From: a virus
Length of the DNA stretch: 64,000 nt
Virus record (IMG/VR): IMGVR_UViG_3300035034_001216
Location: 1-64,000 of that record
Direction: 5' to 3' (one strand)
Shown: positions 1,090 through 64,000 of the stretch, in pieces
How positions within the stretch are numbered: position 1 is the stretch's first letter
Layout of the letters: each line of letters starts with the position of its first letter
The notes under the pieces: generated by a model
What the model saw: only the letters and a program-made list of their open reading frames with translations
Told to the model about the DNA's origin: nothing
Databases searched by the model: none
Position numbers and translations under genes: made by a program

Positions 1090-2283
1090 ATGTTAATATT
1101 AAATAGTAGAATTTTTCAATTTAATGCGTCTGTAATTACAGAGTTACCAGCGATCTTTACTCATATACGTGGGTATGCTGCTGACTTTAATAGTGAATTA
1201 CCAGATGGTATGTATAACAGAGTATCAGAAACTGTATGGAAAGAGTGGGCTGACTTTGTAATAGCTAATGATCTTAAGGTTGTATGGACATTGTATATGA
1301 CAATAGACCGTACACTTGATGATGAAATAGCATTTGTACAAGATCTTGTAGATTATGGTGTAGAGATTTCACACTTCCAGTATGGTGGTGAGTTTTGGCT
1401 TGCTAAATATGCATTAGGAGATCTTAGTAAAAAAGGAGTTGTAGAGCAGGTAACTATTCAAACATATTTAGATATGTTAGACGAATGGATTCCAGCTGTA
1501 GAAGCTGCTTTTCCTGATGTTAAAACAATGCTATTAGGATGCTCACATGAATATACAGAAAGTGAAGTAACTCAAATAACAAATAAGTGGGAAAGTGATA
1601 ATAGAGAATTATCTTCAATTAAAAAGGCGGCATTTTATAGACCTATTTTTAATTACGAAGTGCTAAAATATATCAATGATAATACTTTAGATGCTGGTAT
1701 AACTGTACATTATTATGCTGGAGCTAAACCTGATGAACAACCTGCTAACGGCGAGGATGCAATTTTTGAAGGTATTAATTGGAATCCTTTTATAGACCAG
1801 TTTAGAAAGGCAGTTCCTAATATAGATGTTATAGTTCCCGAGTCTGGATGGTATAGGTCTGATAATAGTACACTCCAATTTGATAAAATGGGAGAGTTCT
1901 ATGAAGCTGGTGCTGAAGCTATTGGTGATAATGGTATAATGGGATTACATATACTACAAGCTAATGGTGGAATTCTAGGATGGTATACTCTTAACGGTAT
2001 AACTAATGTTGGTGAATACTTTTTAGATTACTTTATAGAGAATGTAGCACCACCAGAGCTCGGTGAAGAGGCTGTGTTAGTTAGTTTTTGGGAAAATGTA
2101 TATCCCGGATTTCTTGCTAATTTAAACTTTTCATATGGAACAACTTATTCACAAGGGTTATGGTTTTCAGATGGGTCGTTTCATTTTAATACTGCAAGAC
2201 AGCTAAGAAAACTACAAGGGTACAGAGTTGTGAACGAAGATTTAGGTAAACCAAAAAGTTACTTTTTAAATAAAATAAGCTAA
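1090..2283 (+). CDS. Putative clan GH-A-like TIM-barrel glycoside hydrolase
   Basis: FQYGGEFW (acid/base-like, cf. GNE), TVHYY and VPESGW (nucleophile-like) in the order expected for GH-A; family not assignable by eye. Confidence 0.5.
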   Translation: MLILNSRIFQFNASVITELPAIFTHIRGYAADFNSELPDGMYNRVSETVWKEWADFVIANDLKVVWTLYMTIDRTLDDEIAFVQDLVDYGVEISHFQYGGEFWLAKYALGDLSKKGVVEQVTIQTYLDMLDEWIPAVEAAFPDVKTMLLGCSHEYTESEVTQITNKWESDNRELSSIKKAAFYRPIFNYEVLKYINDNTLDAGITVHYYAGAKPDEQPANGEDAIFEGINWNPFIDQFRKAVPNIDVIVPESGWYRSDNSTLQFDKMGEFYEAGAEAIGDNGIMGLHILQANGGILGWYTLNGITNVGEYFLDYFIENVAPPELGEEAVLVSFWENVYPGFLANLNFSYGTTYSQGLWFSDGSFHFNTARQLRKLQGYRVVNEDLGKPKSYFLNKIS

Positions 2284-59738: not shown

Positions 59739-60152
59739 TTAATAATACTTATTTTTGTAATCTGAAAAATCTCCTGTAGGTACTGCATCTCCTTGTATTC
59801 CATTATGGTTTAAGAAATACATCCATGCCTCTTCAACGTCGCCATGTTCACTATCATCGAGGACGATCTGTGTCATCTTACGAGTGTAAAAGTCTGGATG
59901 ACCTTCAAGACCGTCTAAAGGACCTAATAATGTTGATTCTTCTACTTCATATAGTTCTCCAACTATAGTAGAGTCATTACCATCATTCAATTCTTGACTT
60001 ACAAATGGAAAACCACCACTTCTCATATTAAAAGTGCCTACTGTTTTTCCTTTCCCCATAAATTTCAGGTTGGGGGCACCTGCTAAGCAAGCGTTATGAT
60101 TTCCATAACCCTTGCGAAGCGTACCGTATACAAATACTTTTTGTCTACTCAT
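59739..60152 (-). CDS. Gamma-glutamylcyclotransferase (GGCT/AIG2-like)
   Basis: VFVYGTLRKG, GELYEV, LDGLEGHP.FY.R, AWMY. Confidence 0.92.
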   Translation of the reverse strand: MSRQKVFVYGTLRKGYGNHNACLAGAPNLKFMGKGKTVGTFNMRSGGFPFVSQELNDGNDSTIVGELYEVEESTLLGPLDGLEGHPDFYTRKMTQIVLDDSEHGDVEEAWMYFLNHNGIQGDAVPTGDFSDYKNKYY

Positions 60153-60153
60153 A

Positions 60154-61116
60154 TTAAAGTTTACTGTTAATAATTTCTGGCATAGCTTCTACGTATGCCT
60201 TTAGTGTTCCATCACCAAATGAAGGTGATGAGTTAATTTCAACGATAAAGAATTTAGGATCTTTACGTTTGTTTCCTTTGTACATGCTACCTTGAACACG
60301 TACATCTACCGCACCAATATCAAGTCCTACCGCTTTAAGACTTTTCTTAGACTCGTTTACAATCTTATCCCAGTTTACAGGACGATCGAACGCAGGGTTA
60401 TCTTCTGTATACCATACACTATTACTATCATTACGATAGAAACGTTCATCTTCATGTGTATCAGATTTCAACATTTTTCTGTTGGTGTAAATTACACCAT
60501 TTTCAGAAACGTGAATTCTATACTCACGTAAATAGTTATGATACTTTTCAAACAAGTAACCACCAATCCCAATATTAGTATCTTTGATACCCATATCTTC
60601 ATGATCTTTGAATTGTTGGAAGTTGGTACAGAAAGTCTCAAGCTCATCTACTGTTTCAAATAAAACAATACCAAGACCTTTAGAACCTTTACGTACTTTA
60701 CCAATAAATGGTGCTCCAATCTCTTCTAGTTGTTTTTTGGAAAGAAGAGTATCTTTACCTCTAAGATCTGTACTAAGATTGTTAGGATTTGAAGCATTTA
60801 ACTTATGAAAAGTTCCATTTGTAATGTTAAATGTAAATGCTTCCGCAGTAATAACTTTATCTCTGTTGAAACAAGCTTTCATTCTAAACTTATCAGAAGC
60901 ATTATCTGTAGCCTGAACACTGTTAAGAATTAAACGTTTGTGACCATCAGTATATTGATATCTTGATCCAAACATTATGCTTACTCTTTGAGGAAAAGTA
61001 ATACCACTTTTCTTCATTGCATCTTGCAATTGTTTGTTTGAGTTTTTAGATCTTACAACTGGTGCAAATTCTCTATTTTTTCTTACTTTATTATGAATAC
61101 TTTTAAATCTAGTCAT
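60154..61116 (-). CDS. ATP-grasp ligase (phiEco32/RimK-like)
   Basis: NASDK, GSKGLGI, EYRIHV, RN, GLDIGAVDV, EINSSPS. Confidence 0.88.
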   Translation of the reverse strand: MTRFKSIHNKVRKNREFAPVVRSKNSNKQLQDAMKKSGITFPQRVSIMFGSRYQYTDGHKRLILNSVQATDNASDKFRMKACFNRDKVITAEAFTFNITNGTFHKLNASNPNNLSTDLRGKDTLLSKKQLEEIGAPFIGKVRKGSKGLGIVLFETVDELETFCTNFQQFKDHEDMGIKDTNIGIGGYLFEKYHNYLREYRIHVSENGVIYTNRKMLKSDTHEDERFYRNDSNSVWYTEDNPAFDRPVNWDKIVNESKKSLKAVGLDIGAVDVRVQGSMYKGNKRKDPKFFIVEINSSPSFGDGTLKAYVEAMPEIINSKL

Positions 61117-61128
61117 TTTGTTTATTTT

Positions 61129-61905
61129 TTAAGCGTTAATTTCTTGAACTTCTTGGATTGTTGTTTCTTCTTTAACTTGAGTTGTTTGAAAACTATCAAA
61201 TACGATCTTTTCGTATTTTTCTCCCAAGTATTTTTTATAATTGTTTACTACTTCTTGAACAATATCATATACTCTACCCATTTTTACAATATCTTTTAAC
61301 CAAAAGTTAGATAGAGATCTGTATTCAAATCCGTAGTCTTTAAATCTGAATCTTCCGGGTGTACCATAGATATCTTTTCTTGATTGGTTGTTATCTTCTC
61401 TAACTACCATATCTAAAAATAGATAATCCATTGCTTTAACCATATCTACCACCACATCCATATCTTCTGATAATTCGGGTGGTAGCCCTACATGGACATG
61501 CCCACCTGCGTATCTTACACCATCTTTGAATTCAATCTTAGGATTTTCATTCTTAGTGTAAGCTGATAAATCAGGATCACATCCTATTTCCCAGTCATGA
61601 TCTTCTTTTAAGTCTTCTTTCTCAAAAGTCATAGAAGGTACAACTGATAGAAAATCATCTCCAATAATATCTTGCAGCTTTGATTTTCCTACAAGAATAT
61701 TATTTATGAATCCTTTTTTACTAGTAGCAGGTGGTATATTCAATTCTAACATTACATTGTCAGCATGAACAGCATATCCATTTTTTAAATCTTCAACATC
61801 GTCTTTTGTTCCCGGTGTAAAATCTGCTGCTTTTTTTCCTTTCTGTGTATCTCTTCCTAAAATAAAAAATTCAGGATCAGTTCCTATTGTAAAGGATCTA
61901 TTCAT
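61129..61905 (-). CDS. phiEco32-like COOH-NH2 ligase type 2
   Basis: TIGTDPEFF, DNVMLELNIPP, IGCDPD, GGHVHVG, YGTPGRFRFKDYGFEYRSLSNFW. Confidence 0.9.
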   Translation of the reverse strand: MNRSFTIGTDPEFFILGRDTQKGKKAADFTPGTKDDVEDLKNGYAVHADNVMLELNIPPATSKKGFINNILVGKSKLQDIIGDDFLSVVPSMTFEKEDLKEDHDWEIGCDPDLSAYTKNENPKIEFKDGVRYAGGHVHVGLPPELSEDMDVVVDMVKAMDYLFLDMVVREDNNQSRKDIYGTPGRFRFKDYGFEYRSLSNFWLKDIVKMGRVYDIVQEVVNNYKKYLGEKYEKIVFDSFQTTQVKEETTIQEVQEINA

Positions 61906-61924
61906 TATAAATTAAAAATTTAAA

Positions 61925-62688
61925 TTATTTAATAGGGTTAACTATTTTTTCAACTTCATTGATATAATAATTATAATTGACATCATAATCTAAAAAATCA
62001 ACTTGTTGAAAAAATTTATTAAAATAAGTAACAAGATATTTACTTTCTACTTCAAAAGATCTGTCATCTACAAATACACCATCAAATAGCGTATTCTCAT
62101 ATACAGATTCTTTCCCTTCAAGAGGTGGCATTTTCTTTATTAGTTTTTTACCATGATTAGAAATATAATACCTTACTGTTTTACTAGCTTTCTCTACTGT
62201 TTTATCAGAACTTAAAACATCTTTTAAAATGTAATGAGATCCTTTATTAGATTTAACTGCTTTACAAAAGTCATATATGTCGTCACATTCATAAATAGTC
62301 TTTTTATAGTCTATATTATGAACGTAATAATCATATATTGCCTTTGCTACAATTATCATAGAATGATTCTTATGAGGCTCACGGTTATAATCATACCAAC
62401 CTTTAAGTTTCACTCTATCGTCTACTTTTTCATTTCCAGTTTTGATTGCTAGGTAATTATTTACATTACTCATAACAAGTAAGTCATAAAACGTTTCTTC
62501 TAAAACAAATTTCGTTTTATTTTCCCATTGTCTTTGTAATGATCTAAATTCATCTAACCTTTCTTTACTAAATAGTACAACTACACCATCAGTATTAGCA
62601 GATAAAACAGAAAATCCTGATATATCAAGATCTTCTATAAGCATTAACAATGATAATTGACCAATAGTGGTCGTTTGGATTGTTACTA
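61925..62688 (-). CDS. polB: Family B DNA polymerase, 3' exon (C-terminal palm and thumb)
   Basis: VTIQTTTIGQLSLLMLIE...SANTDG...VNNYLA...KLKG, RYYIS match crAss PolB; the frame continues upstream of the track's TTG to the predicted 3' splice site (62689/62688) and hits TAA just beyond it. Confidence 0.88.
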
Positions 62689-62721
62689 CTTACCACACTC
62701 AGTCACCTGAGCATAATAAAA

Positions 62722-63354
62722 TTACGTTAATTTATCAGCAACTGTTTCTCTGTTGAATATCCATATTTTAATGAAATTTCTACTGTTATTATTATAAGCA
62801 GGTTCTGTACATGTTTCGCACATTTCAGTAAGACATCCATCTAATATTGCCCATTCATTTGTCACACCTATCGGTTCATTTTTTGTACTTTGTCCGCCAG
62901 AAGTCATGTTGGTAGATACTAGAGTAAAAGCTGGACATTTTGTTAGTATCCTATCAAGAATCATATTTTGAAAAACCCATTTTATAAGTTTTTCTTCTAT
63001 AAATTCTTTGTTATACAAAACACCTTTAAGTTCAGAAATCATATTAGGTATTAATGTCGCAGATGAGTATTTTAAAGATGGATTATCTCGAGTCCCTTTC
63101 AAAAATGAAACTATTCTGCGAGATTCTCCATAAGCTGAGTTGATACCTGACATTTGGAGAGCACCACATGATATGTCAGTGCCTCCTACTCCTAAATGTT
63201 TATTGCCTGAGTAATTTATTAGTTCTTTAATACGAGATAAAACTTCAGGATTATCTTTTAATGTCTCAGGCGTTAGCTTTGAACTTTTTTTTTCTTCTAC
63301 TTTTAGTACTTTCAATTTGCTCATAATAAATTGTTTTTTTTGTTTTGATTTCAT
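62722..63354 (-). CDS. Intron passenger gene in the P9 region (hypothetical, no homing-endonuclease motif)
   Basis: ATG 63354 (or 63324) after an A-rich leader; SCGALQMSG...NNNSRNFIKIW; no HNH, GIY-YIG or LAGLIDADG signature seen. Confidence 0.75.
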   Translation of the reverse strand: MKSKQKKQFIMSKLKVLKVEEKKSSKLTPETLKDNPEVLSRIKELINYSGNKHLGVGGTDISCGALQMSGINSAYGESRRIVSFLKGTRDNPSLKYSSATLIPNMISELKGVLYNKEFIEEKLIKWVFQNMILDRILTKCPAFTLVSTNMTSGGQSTKNEPIGVTNEWAILDGCLTEMCETCTEPAYNNNSRNFIKIWIFNRETVADKLT

Positions 63355-63385
63355 AATTTTATTATTTGTAGTCTGGACCATCTCA

Positions 63386-63697
63386 TCAACCGCATTCAAT
63401 GTCACATGTAGGACTATTAAGTCCACATTTACATTTAATTTTAGGTTGCTCGTTGTTGGCCTCTACGCCGTTTTCTAATTTTTCACATAAACTAATAACT
63501 TCTTCATCATCACCATAAGCGCATAATGCTTCTAAAATTAATTTAATGTCTTTATTATCAAGTGACGGCACGGGATTGTCAAATTTTTTAAGTACTATTT
63601 TACAAAAGTCTACTTCAAATTGCTTTTGGAGATCTTCTTGAACTGCTTTTATATAATCAGGATTTTCATCTGATTGAAATTGTACTATAATTTTCAT
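63386..63697 (-). CDS. Intron passenger ORF overlapping the ribozyme core (hypothetical, 103 aa)
   Basis: ATG after an A-rich leader in L5; open through P5', P4', P6, P7, P3' and P8; TGA at the P8'/J8-7 junction. Confidence 0.55.
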   Translation of the reverse strand: MKIIVQFQSDENPDYIKAVQEDLQKQFEVDFCKIVLKKFDNPVPSLDNKDIKLILEALCAYGDDEEVISLCEKLENGVEANNEQPKIKCKCGLNSPTCDIECG

Positions 63698-63723
63698 ATT
63701 TTTTTTAAATTTGAGTTTCCCCG

Positions 63724-63896
63724 TTAGCTAATATTAAATTCTGTTAAATATTTACATTCTGATTTTTTACCACCACATTTAATTATCTCATATCTTTTTG
63801 ATAATTTACAATTACATGATGGTGGTCCACAATGTGAACCGGGTATATAACTTCCATTACCACACCCATCATCATAATGTTTACATTTTTTTTCAT
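63724..63896 (-). CDS. Cys-rich intron passenger ORF in a P3.2-like loop (needs A9 rather than A8 after the ATG)
   Basis: ATG-A8, then frame CKHYDDGCGNGSYIPGSHCGPPSCNCKLSKRYEIIKCGGKKSECKYLTEFNIS* with TAA at 63726-63724; as written the ATG frame gives only 37 aa. Confidence 0.45.
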
Positions 63897-64000
63897 AATT
63901 TTAATATTAACCCCTCTTTCGAGGATTCCGAGTTATTCGAAGTACATTACTGTACTAAGCCGCTAGTTTGACTTTATTATTAAATCGTTTTAAGAATATT

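Follow-up and report, generated by a model that had tools for sequence, protein, structure and literature searches.

Can the strands that build the catalytic core of a group I intron also be read by ribosomes as one continuous message? The question is raised by a window of 64,000 nucleotides (nt) of viral DNA, IMG/VR record IMGVR_UViG_3300035034_001216, which covers the initial 64,000 bases of a viral contig 72,521 bases long. The remainder of the contig is referred to as L002, and a window coordinate equals the L002 coordinate plus 60000. On the minus strand of the window, at 63386..63697, there is an open reading frame (ORF) of 103 codons, for which a first-pass annotation had proposed that it is read straight through the helices of a ribozyme located in a DNA polymerase gene. 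The analysis described here indicates that this ORF is probably a real and selected coding frame within a group I self-splicing intron that interrupts the polymerase gene of the phage.

The polymerase gene is present in two parts. The N-terminal polymerase ORF (contig 65185..66339, minus strand) matches positions 52-425 of the PHROG profile phrog_1252 (DNA polymerase), and the C-terminal polymerase ORF (61925..62650, minus strand) matches positions 438-651. The gap between profile positions 425 and 438 is filled by the 12 codons upstream of the C-terminal ORF. With the uninterrupted polymerase of the Maribacter phage Panino as a reference, the N-terminal fragment aligns up to ...DPLAK(593) and the C-terminal fragment from Q(595). 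The two fragments thus align end to end, and about 2.5 kb intervenes at a single point of the gene. When 65211 is joined in silico to 62688, the product is in frame and reads ...KYSWMYDPLVTIQTTTIGQLSLLMLIED (the joined exons are also given as ...WMYDPLVTIQTTTIGQLSLLMLIED), with exactly three residues between DPL and Q, the same spacing as in the Panino polymerase. As required for a group I intron, the host reading frame is restored by the precise removal of 65210..62689, a segment of 2,522 nt on the minus strand of the contig, and the exon frame terminates 26 nt into this segment at a UAA. Judged from its sequence, the insert is a group I-type self-splicing intron. Its boundaries are as follows.

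65211|65210, minus strand: 5' splice site, GAUCCGU|UAAC, where CCGU (65214-65211) can pair with the guide GCGG.
62689..62711, minus strand: 3' end of the intron, read from the sequence as a hairpin CUCAG-GUGA-CUGAG (62711-62698) followed by UGUGGUAAG and the omega-G at 62689.
61925..62688, minus strand: DNA polymerase exon 2, which begins at 62688 with UAGUAACAAUCC... and carries the match to phrog_1252 positions 438-651.

Both the omega-G at 62689 and a P10 pairing, in which UAGU of exon 2 is complementary to ACUA just 5' of the guide, are predicted from the sequence only. An ortholog from a metagenome, L196, has the same polymerase gene similarly split into ORFs of 384 and 255 amino acids (aa). 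It shares with the window the 5' splice site, the guide sequence, the 3' end and homologues of two ORFs of 147 and 291 aa. The final 23 nt of the intron are identical in L196 and stand there directly before UAGUAAC. The stretch between 65211 and 63968 might have held a mini-exon or been made up of two introns in tandem. Both possibilities were rejected: GCGG pairs with CCGU at 65214-65211, the layout of L196 is the same, and the Panino spacing leaves no extra residues.

Four lake-water DNA sequencing runs from four studies contain contig pieces of L002 2400-5500, and most of these pieces are identical. In three of the four runs there is one short piece each with less than 90% identity (34 nt with 4 differences, L002 3333-3366). 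No intron-less form of the DNA was seen, and no joints were found among the contigs of the four runs, an observation that is uninformative on expression or splicing. The sample from which the record derives may be among these runs.

Within the intron the elements of a group I ribozyme can be assigned as follows, all on the minus strand.

65211 (last exon base) with 63963-63960: P1, exon CCGU paired with guide GCGG, with a U.G pair at the splice site.
63967-63964: ACUA, complementary to UAGU of exon 2, forming P10.
63956-63941: P2, AGUACA-GUAA-UGUACU, with compensatory changes in relatives.
63932-63929 and 63452-63449: P3, CUCG/CGAG, supported by covariation.
63929..63967: P2, the 5' strand of P3, the guide and the P10 strand together, at coordinates checked by script.
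63725..63928: insertion between P3 and P4, consisting of a hairpin GAAUCCUC-GAAA-GAGGGGUU (63928-63909) and about 180 nt with a 37-codon ORF.
63724-63719 and 63575-63570: P4, ACGGGG/UCCCGU, whose 3' strand is the "Q" element.
63714-63707 and 63586-63579: P5, UCAAAUUU/AAAUUUGA, with compensatory changes in relatives.
63569-63565 and 63471-63467: P6, GCCGU/ACGGC, checked by script.
63466-63462: J6/7, GUAGA, checked by script.
63461-63457 and 63380-63376: P7, GGCCA/UGGUC, whose 5' strand is the "R" element.
63448-63443 and 63392-63387: P8, CAACCU/CGGUUG, supported by a permutation test in relatives.
63386-63381: J8/7, AUGAGA, between P8' and P7'.
63365-63355 and 62723-62713: P9, an 11-bp stem closing L9, which covaries in L196.

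Relatives of this element were collected with a 14-mer from a conserved block as a seed; a 15-mer gave 82 stretches, 73 of them distinct. A downstream P6'/J6-7 motif is present in 35 of the 73. One of these, the GC-rich L138, is a chance match, which leaves 34 members including the window. The other 38 matches to the 15-mer are without the family flanks and represent GC-rich coding DNA or a different intron type, so that no family member was dropped. The first relative, L003, was confirmed by tblastn as a relative of the ORF and lies inside a split DnaB-like helicase gene. Three blocks of its nucleotide sequence are collinear with the window at 79-86% identity, and the inserts between them are unrelated and differ in length. 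The family as a whole sits in polymerase, helicase and other genes. A tblastn search of the ORF against 50,697 phage records returned only the Cellulophaga phage phi14:2 (E 0.2). This cultured, crAss-like phage carries a family member (L198, NC_021806.1 12322-17489) between g025 and the DnaB helicase gene g029. The member is annotated only as the hypothetical proteins g026-g028, with no intron annotated, and g027 is the core-spanning ORF.

The helices P3, P4, P5, P5', P4', P6, P6', P7, P3', P8, P8', P7' and P9 occur in the canonical order and are supported by covariation. For P3, all four pairs are retained in 10 of the 12 relatives in which the 5' part was located, with seven types of pairing among them. 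In L016, one of the remaining two, an inserted gene behind P7 displaces P3'. P8 occurs as 13 distinct strand pairs, and none of 2000 permutations reaches the observed pairing. P7 is found as three types across the relatives, all fully paired, and P2, P5 and P9 show compensatory changes in relatives, in the case of the P9 stem in L196. At different host sites P1 is formed by CCGU/GCGG, GGGU/GCCC or GGAU/GUCC, and L003 and L122, both in the helicase gene, share the pair of the window. The one oddity of the core is the hairpin with the insert that separates P3 and P4 in the window. In L196, P3 (CUCG) is followed directly by GAAUAACGGGG and the hairpin and insert are missing, which makes them an addition in the window. 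For the same reason the hairpin at 63928-63909 was rejected as a P2.1, since in the ortholog P3 abuts P4 without it. The hairpin is also present in several relatives, and its arms resemble both strands of P4, with which they could in principle pair instead.

The polymerase could also be encoded by two genes with unrelated genes between them, and DNPVPS and NGVET, the two recurrent peptides of the ORF, would then be protein motifs of a small mobile gene. Such a reading draws on the Rfam results and on the fact that splicing is predicted rather than observed. The group I model RF00028 gave no match in the window, either at the gathering threshold or at E<=10 on 61500-64000, none on L002 1500-6500 or on L077 10500-11500, and none to this element in L003, L077, L117 or L023; whatever Rfam matched in the window, L002 and L077 was at chance level. 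In L016, Rfam found only a tRNA and a different intron elsewhere. These results speak against an intron of this type. The model does recognise L103, with 72.8 bits, and aligns the same 14-mer as P4'/P6. The LAGLIDADG_2 gene carried by the relative L016 (E 3e-38) also speaks for an intron. Given the negative result in the window, the identity of the intron rests on the helix and covariation analysis together with this bridging match, and the large loop inserts and the limited reach of the model may be the cause of the miss. The two-gene explanation is contradicted by several features: synonymous sites do not vary in the conserved blocks, and paired strands change in concert; conserved blocks lie outside any ORF (P2 with its GNRA loop, the guide sequence, the 3' hairpin); the exon ends pair with the guide in three host-gene contexts; and excision restores the polymerase frame exactly. 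We consider it very unlikely and the least probable of the explanations discussed here.

Among 14 loci compared with it, RF00028 reached its gathering score in only two, with four matches (three introns in L103 and one in L099). Most of these loci (L091, L096, L108, L085, L086 and others) have canonical-looking group I cores around the 14-mer. The model therefore misses much of this phage intron diversity.

The ORF follows the core in the order L5, P5', P4', P6, L6, P6', J6/7, P7, P3', P8, L8, with the stop in P8'/J8-7. Its parts are listed below, all on the minus strand.

63386..63697: the ORF of 103 codons with an ATG start, from L5 to P8'/J8-7, taken from the ORF listing.
63587..63706: L5, with an A-rich leader, the ATG (63697-63695) and the N-terminal module of the ORF, which is conserved at the protein level in L046 and L122.
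63565..63586: P5', P4' and the 5' strand of P6, encoding (F)DNPVPS; the 14-mer here is aligned to P4'/P6 in the Rfam-recognised L103.
63472..63564: L6, 93 nt, encoding a helical module, LDNKDIKLILEALCAYGDDEEVISLCEKLE, and also forming an extended hairpin.
63443..63471: P6', J6/7, P7, P3' and the 5' strand of P8, encoding NGVEANNEQP, checked by script.
63393..63442: L8, 50 nt, encoding a Cys-rich tail, KIKCKCGLNSPTCDIEC, and also forming a hairpin.
63376..63392: P8', J8/7 and P7', with the ORF stop UGA (63388-63386) overlapping the end of P8' and the start of J8/7.

The ATG lies in L5, 9 nt past the 5' strand of P5 and behind the A-rich leader. The ORF shares nucleotides with one strand of each of P5, P4, P7 and P3 and with both strands of P6 and P8, and so overlaps the core itself. 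The enlarged loops of the intron are L1, L5, L6, L8 and L9; of these, L5, L6 and L8 are read as one frame. The first-pass annotation had described the ribozyme in the polymerase gene, the 103-codon ORF with its peptide, and the path of the ORF from L5 after the A-rich leader through Q, L6, R/P7, P3' and P8 to the stop at P8'/J8-7. The ORF was found as described, every structural label held when checked by script, and the ribozyme is supported by the helices, by covariation and by the excision that restores the polymerase frame. The same annotation had argued that a stop-free frame of this length is unlikely to arise by chance. With a G+C content of 31.3% in the window, about 0.08 stops per codon are expected from composition, and an open stretch of 103 codons has p ~2e-4 per stop-to-stop interval, with about 0.05 such stretches expected in a 2.5-kb intron. 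This is suggestive and to that extent agrees with the argument, but the strong evidence is comparative and does not come from this calculation.

The distance from P6 to P6' varies from 11 to 182 nt among the members, and it is 2 modulo 3 in all 34. The frame set by GAC AAU CCC is free of stops across L6 in 33 of the 34, and the other two frames contain 1-10 stops each. When L6 inserts of at least 30 nt were grouped, 22 clusters without detectable mutual similarity were obtained, and all have lengths that are multiples of three. In the cluster representatives there is 1 stop in 848 codons in frame 0, compared with 88 in 826 and 158 in 826 codons in frames +1 and +2. L8 was scored in the 28 members in which P8' and P7' could be located, and the frame is open through L8 (4-187 nt) in 26 of them. 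Six members were left unscored: L102 and L174 are cut by contig ends, P8'/P7' were not located in L171, and L016, L187 and L188 contain a gene insert. The stop of the ORF is at the L8/P8' boundary (UAG or UAA) in 18 cases, 4 nt into P8' in 4 cases including the window, and at +12 in 2 cases, +24 in 1 and +38 in 1. In the relatives, the P8'-J8/7-P7' stretch is closed by stops in every frame, and it is where 24 of 28 ORFs terminate. Of 33 distinct ORFs, 31 begin at an in-frame ATG, and contig ends truncate the remaining two. In members whose L5 is occupied by a separate large ORF, a new ATG is found only a few codons (at most about 20) before DNPVPS. The first-pass annotation had named stops or frameshifts in homologous introns as the finding that would speak against the frame; homologous introns instead keep it, with 33 of 34 open across L6 and all 34 L6 lengths in register.

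Between the window and L196 the core nucleotides are nearly identical: no difference was read in the 18 nt from GACAAU to GUCA or in GGUUGAUGAGAUGGUCCAGACUACAAAUAA, and a single one in the stretch from UUAGAAAACGG to CCUAAA. L5, L6 and L8 are strongly diverged and L6 differs in length by 15 nt, and the ORF of L196 (142 aa) is still open. Where loop pairs can be aligned as protein, the proportion of nonsynonymous differences (pN) is in most cases lower than that of synonymous differences (pS): 0.095 versus 0.309 for L6 of the window and L003, 0.156 versus 0.496 for L046 and L113, and 0.283 versus 0.422 for L5 of the window and L046. Taken together, the comparisons support selection on the frame of the 103-codon ORF, as far as this can be judged from sequence evolution.

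Overlaps between ORFs and intron cores have been explained in general by "core creep", in which an ORF in one loop is extended by loss of a stop or start. On this view the frame would have arisen as a side effect, without selection, or would be an error of annotation. This explanation is published, with a warning that many ORF ends are mis-called (PMC3073962), and a chance origin is possible, in that the same frame stays open over 26 codons of core sequence in L077, where no insert is present. It does not predict three separate loops in frame. Nor does it account for the 22 independent L6 inserts, all multiples of three, with their 1 stop as opposed to 88 and 158, or for the fact that every complete member has an ATG of its own even where a separate large ORF fills L5. 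We therefore regard passive extension as very unlikely.

The loops must also fold. In the window, P6-L6-P6' forms one long predicted hairpin (z-score -2.40), and the L8 region folds as a hairpin (z-score -2.84). Against dinucleotide shuffles, the mean z-score of the loop alone is -2.26 for L6 (30 distinct sequences, 19 of them below -1.64) and -2.33 for L8 (23 distinct sequences, 18 below -1.64). Since the inserts of L6 and L8 are open in frame and at the same time fold better than shuffled sequences, they are under two constraints at once, one of coding and one of structure.

What does the frame encode? None of the 35 relatives of the ORF has a Pfam nuclease, so that a homing endonuclease of the LAGLIDADG, GIY-YIG, HNH, His-Cys box or PD-(D/E)XK type was not recognised, and a single weak PHROG match to HNH (E 0.0074) was found in one of the 35. 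Pfam matches in single members are to GNAT (L053, 2e-6) or to small zinc-finger models. Six proteins, the query among them, were recovered from 5.8 billion searched. The L6 module of the window occurs with different tails in three of the other five proteins and in the ORF of L003 (the module is listed for P0002-P0005), and two of these tails are CxxC...CxxC ribbons. The module retains 66-76% amino acid identity across five different introns. P0006 combines a minimal L6 with the Cys-rich tail of the window itself. The modules are thus found in differing combinations, which indicates that they come and go independently while the frame is kept. An AlphaFold2 model based on a 14-row alignment contains a beta-alpha-beta unit (residues 3-37) and helices at 48-61 and 65-75, and the linkers encoded by the core score below 50. 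From its sequence, the product is predicted to be a short peptide built of modules that evolves fast and in many members has a Cys-rich tail; it cannot be recognised as a homing endonuclease. In the window it combines a beta-alpha-beta module, a helical hairpin and a Cys-rich tail.

Two observations on relatives concern the cargo of the loops. In L053 (883-1548, plus strand), a GNAT acetyltransferase domain (Acetyltransf_1, E 2e-6) fills L5 as an in-frame fusion to the core-spanning ORF. A module of about 35 aa (LHKFNKL...YC..GI.YN) is found in L8 of L003 (6150-6282, plus strand) and, by a likeness seen by eye, in L5 of L113 and L117, as N-terminal parts of their ORFs. The latter suggests that modules may move between loops while the frame is kept.

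Several results weigh against a selected, peptide-coding frame. The frame is broken by a stop within L6 in L184 and early in L8 in L151, the two of the 28 scored members that terminate ahead of the rest, and in L016, L187 and L188 it ends just after P7 at the inserted gene. Purifying selection is moderate and uneven, with pN/pS of about 0.3-0.7, a value near 1 for L146-L163 and above 1 for L016-L117, and a bias toward low pN comes from the choice of pairs by their likeness as proteins. Pfam gave no family for the 103-aa ORF and none that is common to the 35 relatives, PHROG gave only a weak match to the unnamed phrog_22222 (E 0.009), and Atlas gave no usable match. The AlphaFold2 model is poor, with a mean predicted local distance difference test score of 57.5. 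The sequencing runs listed as holding the locus are four of DNA, all lake-water metagenomes, and none of RNA. Finally, the loop cargo is heterogeneous (GNAT in L053, zinc-ribbon-like tails, unrelated helices), which would also fit selection for the transit of ribosomes.

In that alternative, the AUG in L5 loads ribosomes that have to reach the fixed stops at P8'/J8-7, and the amino acid sequence is largely free. Transit could shield the AU-rich loop RNA from decay or termination, chaperone or time the folding of the 2.5-kb intron, or hand ribosomes on to the L9 gene 32 nt downstream. It would explain why the cargo forms 22 clusters in L6 and 23 in L8 that are unrelated to one another, with no shared protein family and a low-confidence model, why pN/pS lies only moderately under 1 and reaches or exceeds 1 in some pairs, and why stops in three frames are clustered at P8'-J8/7-P7'. 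In the window and several relatives an ORF follows closely in L9, and upstream translation as a folding aid has been described for T4 introns (PMC3073962, PMC3984707). Set against this are tails of the CxC...CxxC type that recur in non-homologous L8 inserts, pN below pS in most alignable pairs, the L6 module kept at high amino acid identity in five introns, and the complete GNAT domain fused in frame in L053. Selection for transit and not for the peptide is possible but, in our judgment, rather unlikely, and a frame selected for coding is the reading retained below.

If the ORF is such a coding frame, L5, L6 and L8 would be read as one frame from an exposed AUG in L5, and the ribozyme strands between the loops would serve as fixed peptide linkers, DNPVPS and NGVE[AT]NxEQP. 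Inserts in the loops would have to stay in frame, remain stop-free and still pair as extensions of P6 and P8. Ribosomes would start at the L5 AUG behind the A-rich leader, which recurs in the family, would have to open P5, P4, P6, P7, P3 and P8, and would leave at the stop-rich P8'-J8/7-P7' stretch. A ribosome on this path must melt P6 and P8 on both sides and P5, P4, P7 and P3 on one, and thereby opens most of the P4-P6 domain, so translation and catalysis cannot coincide on one RNA; their mutual exclusion on a single molecule is physically implied by this analysis. In the simplest order, splicing would come first and the excised intron would then be translated. Alternatively, early ribosomes might delay folding, or transcripts that are not yet folded might be translated. 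No Bacteroidota-type promoter was seen upstream of the ORF ATG in a look by eye. We infer that the peptide may be made and functional and that splicing and translation would follow one of these orders; the switch on DNA polymerase production proposed in the first-pass annotation is speculative.

A bolder version treats the intron family as an expression platform, in which the core strands are in-frame linkers and L5, L6 and L8 carry exchangeable "protein exons" open to varied cargo such as helical hairpins, zinc-ribbon-like tails or the GNAT domain. Loading at the L5 AUG would compete with the folding of P4-P6 and P3-P8, and cargo synthesis would be inversely coupled to the splicing of essential replication genes, those of the DNA polymerase and of a DnaB-type helicase. 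We consider this speculative and doubtful. If it were true, the phage or the intron would gain a translational toggle on the timing of replication.

Further ORFs are found in and around the intron, all on the minus strand of the window or contig.

63968..65210 (window part 63968..64000): L1, the loop of P1, about 1.2 kb, with the same layout in L196.
63980..64855: a 291-aa ORF in L1, of no known family.
64755..65198: a 147-aa ORF in L1, of no known family.
63354..62722: a 210-aa ORF filling L9, which is closed by the P9 stem (62713..63365).

In L196, homologues stand at the same place in L1, with 53% identity for the 147-aa ORF and 29% for the 291-aa ORF. The AUG of the 147-aa ORF is 13 nt past the 5' splice site, and the ORF overlaps the exon-frame stop UAA, an arrangement that would allow termination-reinitiation. 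The 210-aa ORF has its AUG directly after the P9 stem and a stop that overlaps the 3' strand of P9. It matched no Pfam or PHROG family, and the Atlas matches were confined to clusters of hypothetical proteins from viruses and Bacteroidota. At the L9 position of L196 stands a 219-aa ORF that looks related by eye.

In the relative L016, a gene of the LAGLIDADG_2 family (Pfam, E 3e-38; 1653-2276, minus strand) is inserted right after the 5' strand of P7, and the core-spanning ORF ends at NGVETK. The ORFs of L187 and L188 likewise end just after NGVET, and the downstream sequence of L188 resembles that of L016; LAGLIDADG_2 is confirmed by Pfam in L016 only. Downstream of the polymerase in the window (59739-61905, minus strand) are a phiEco32-like COOH-NH2 ligase (PF14395, phrog_3815) and a protein whose PHROG match is to ribosomal protein S6 glutaminyl transferase. 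A third gene there, an ORF of 137 aa, is by its motif a candidate gamma-glutamyl cyclotransferase.

Overlap between an ORF and an intron core is already known for homing endonucleases, and the idea is thus less new than the first-pass annotation assumed. In the Synechococcus large-subunit ribosomal DNA intron L1917, a LAGLIDADG ORF begins in P6, crosses P7, P3 and P8 and ends in P9, and its authors pointed out that the nucleotides concerned both build the ribozyme core and encode protein (Haugen et al. 2007, PMC1995217). As here, core strands of P7, P3 and P8 are read. In contrast to that homing endonuclease, which has its body in one loop, the ORF of the window has no recognisable nuclease and three coding loops. 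It also begins further upstream, in L5, and reads P5', P4' and both strands of P6, and its frame is kept across about 30 introns in several host genes.

The td intron of T4, with I-TevI, is similarly a phage group I intron in a gene of DNA metabolism with an ORF overlapping core helices, in which translation of the intron ORF must be separated from splicing. There the ORF overlaps 20 nt of P6a/P7, and ribosome occupancy of the core impairs splicing, an experimental precedent for the conflict between the two processes (Edgell, Chalamcharla and Belfort 2011, PMC3073962; PMC3984707). The overlap in td is the short 3' tail of a 245-aa endonuclease, and the ribosome-binding site is sequestered, whereas about 70 nt of core strands lie inside the ORF described here and its AUG is in an open, A-rich loop. 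In contrast to td, no regulatory hairpin or internal promoter was identified here, the promoter being looked for by eye only. In the review, core creep is treated as a general phenomenon of ORF and core overlap, with overlaps of up to 81 nt in its Table 1, which also lists ORFs in P1 for other introns (PMC3073962). Intron ORFs that are fused to the host exon (LAGLIDADG, GIY-YIG, maturases) also have frames that run through structural elements of the intron. In contrast to these, the exon frame here is closed 26 nt into the intron, and translation of the ORF would begin at a start codon of its own in L5. A full-text search of the literature, covering the main texts of a limited collection, found no described family of core-spanning ORFs other than endonucleases.

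Earlier work took the overlap of intron ORFs with the core for a short, frequently questionable side effect of invasion by endonucleases. In the present case the frame crosses almost the whole catalytic core and three coding loops in about 30 phage introns, and the loops still fold as helices. Because the family escapes Rfam, genes for polymerase and helicase that are split in Bacteroidota phages probably appear in annotations as fragments and "hypothetical proteins". The family would represent a natural and well-replicated RNA that is constrained both as an enzyme and as a message, and it could be used to measure the trade-off between the two constraints. The old question of how bacteria separate translation from splicing becomes directly testable, as the cultured phage phi14:2 carries an unannotated member in its DnaB gene.

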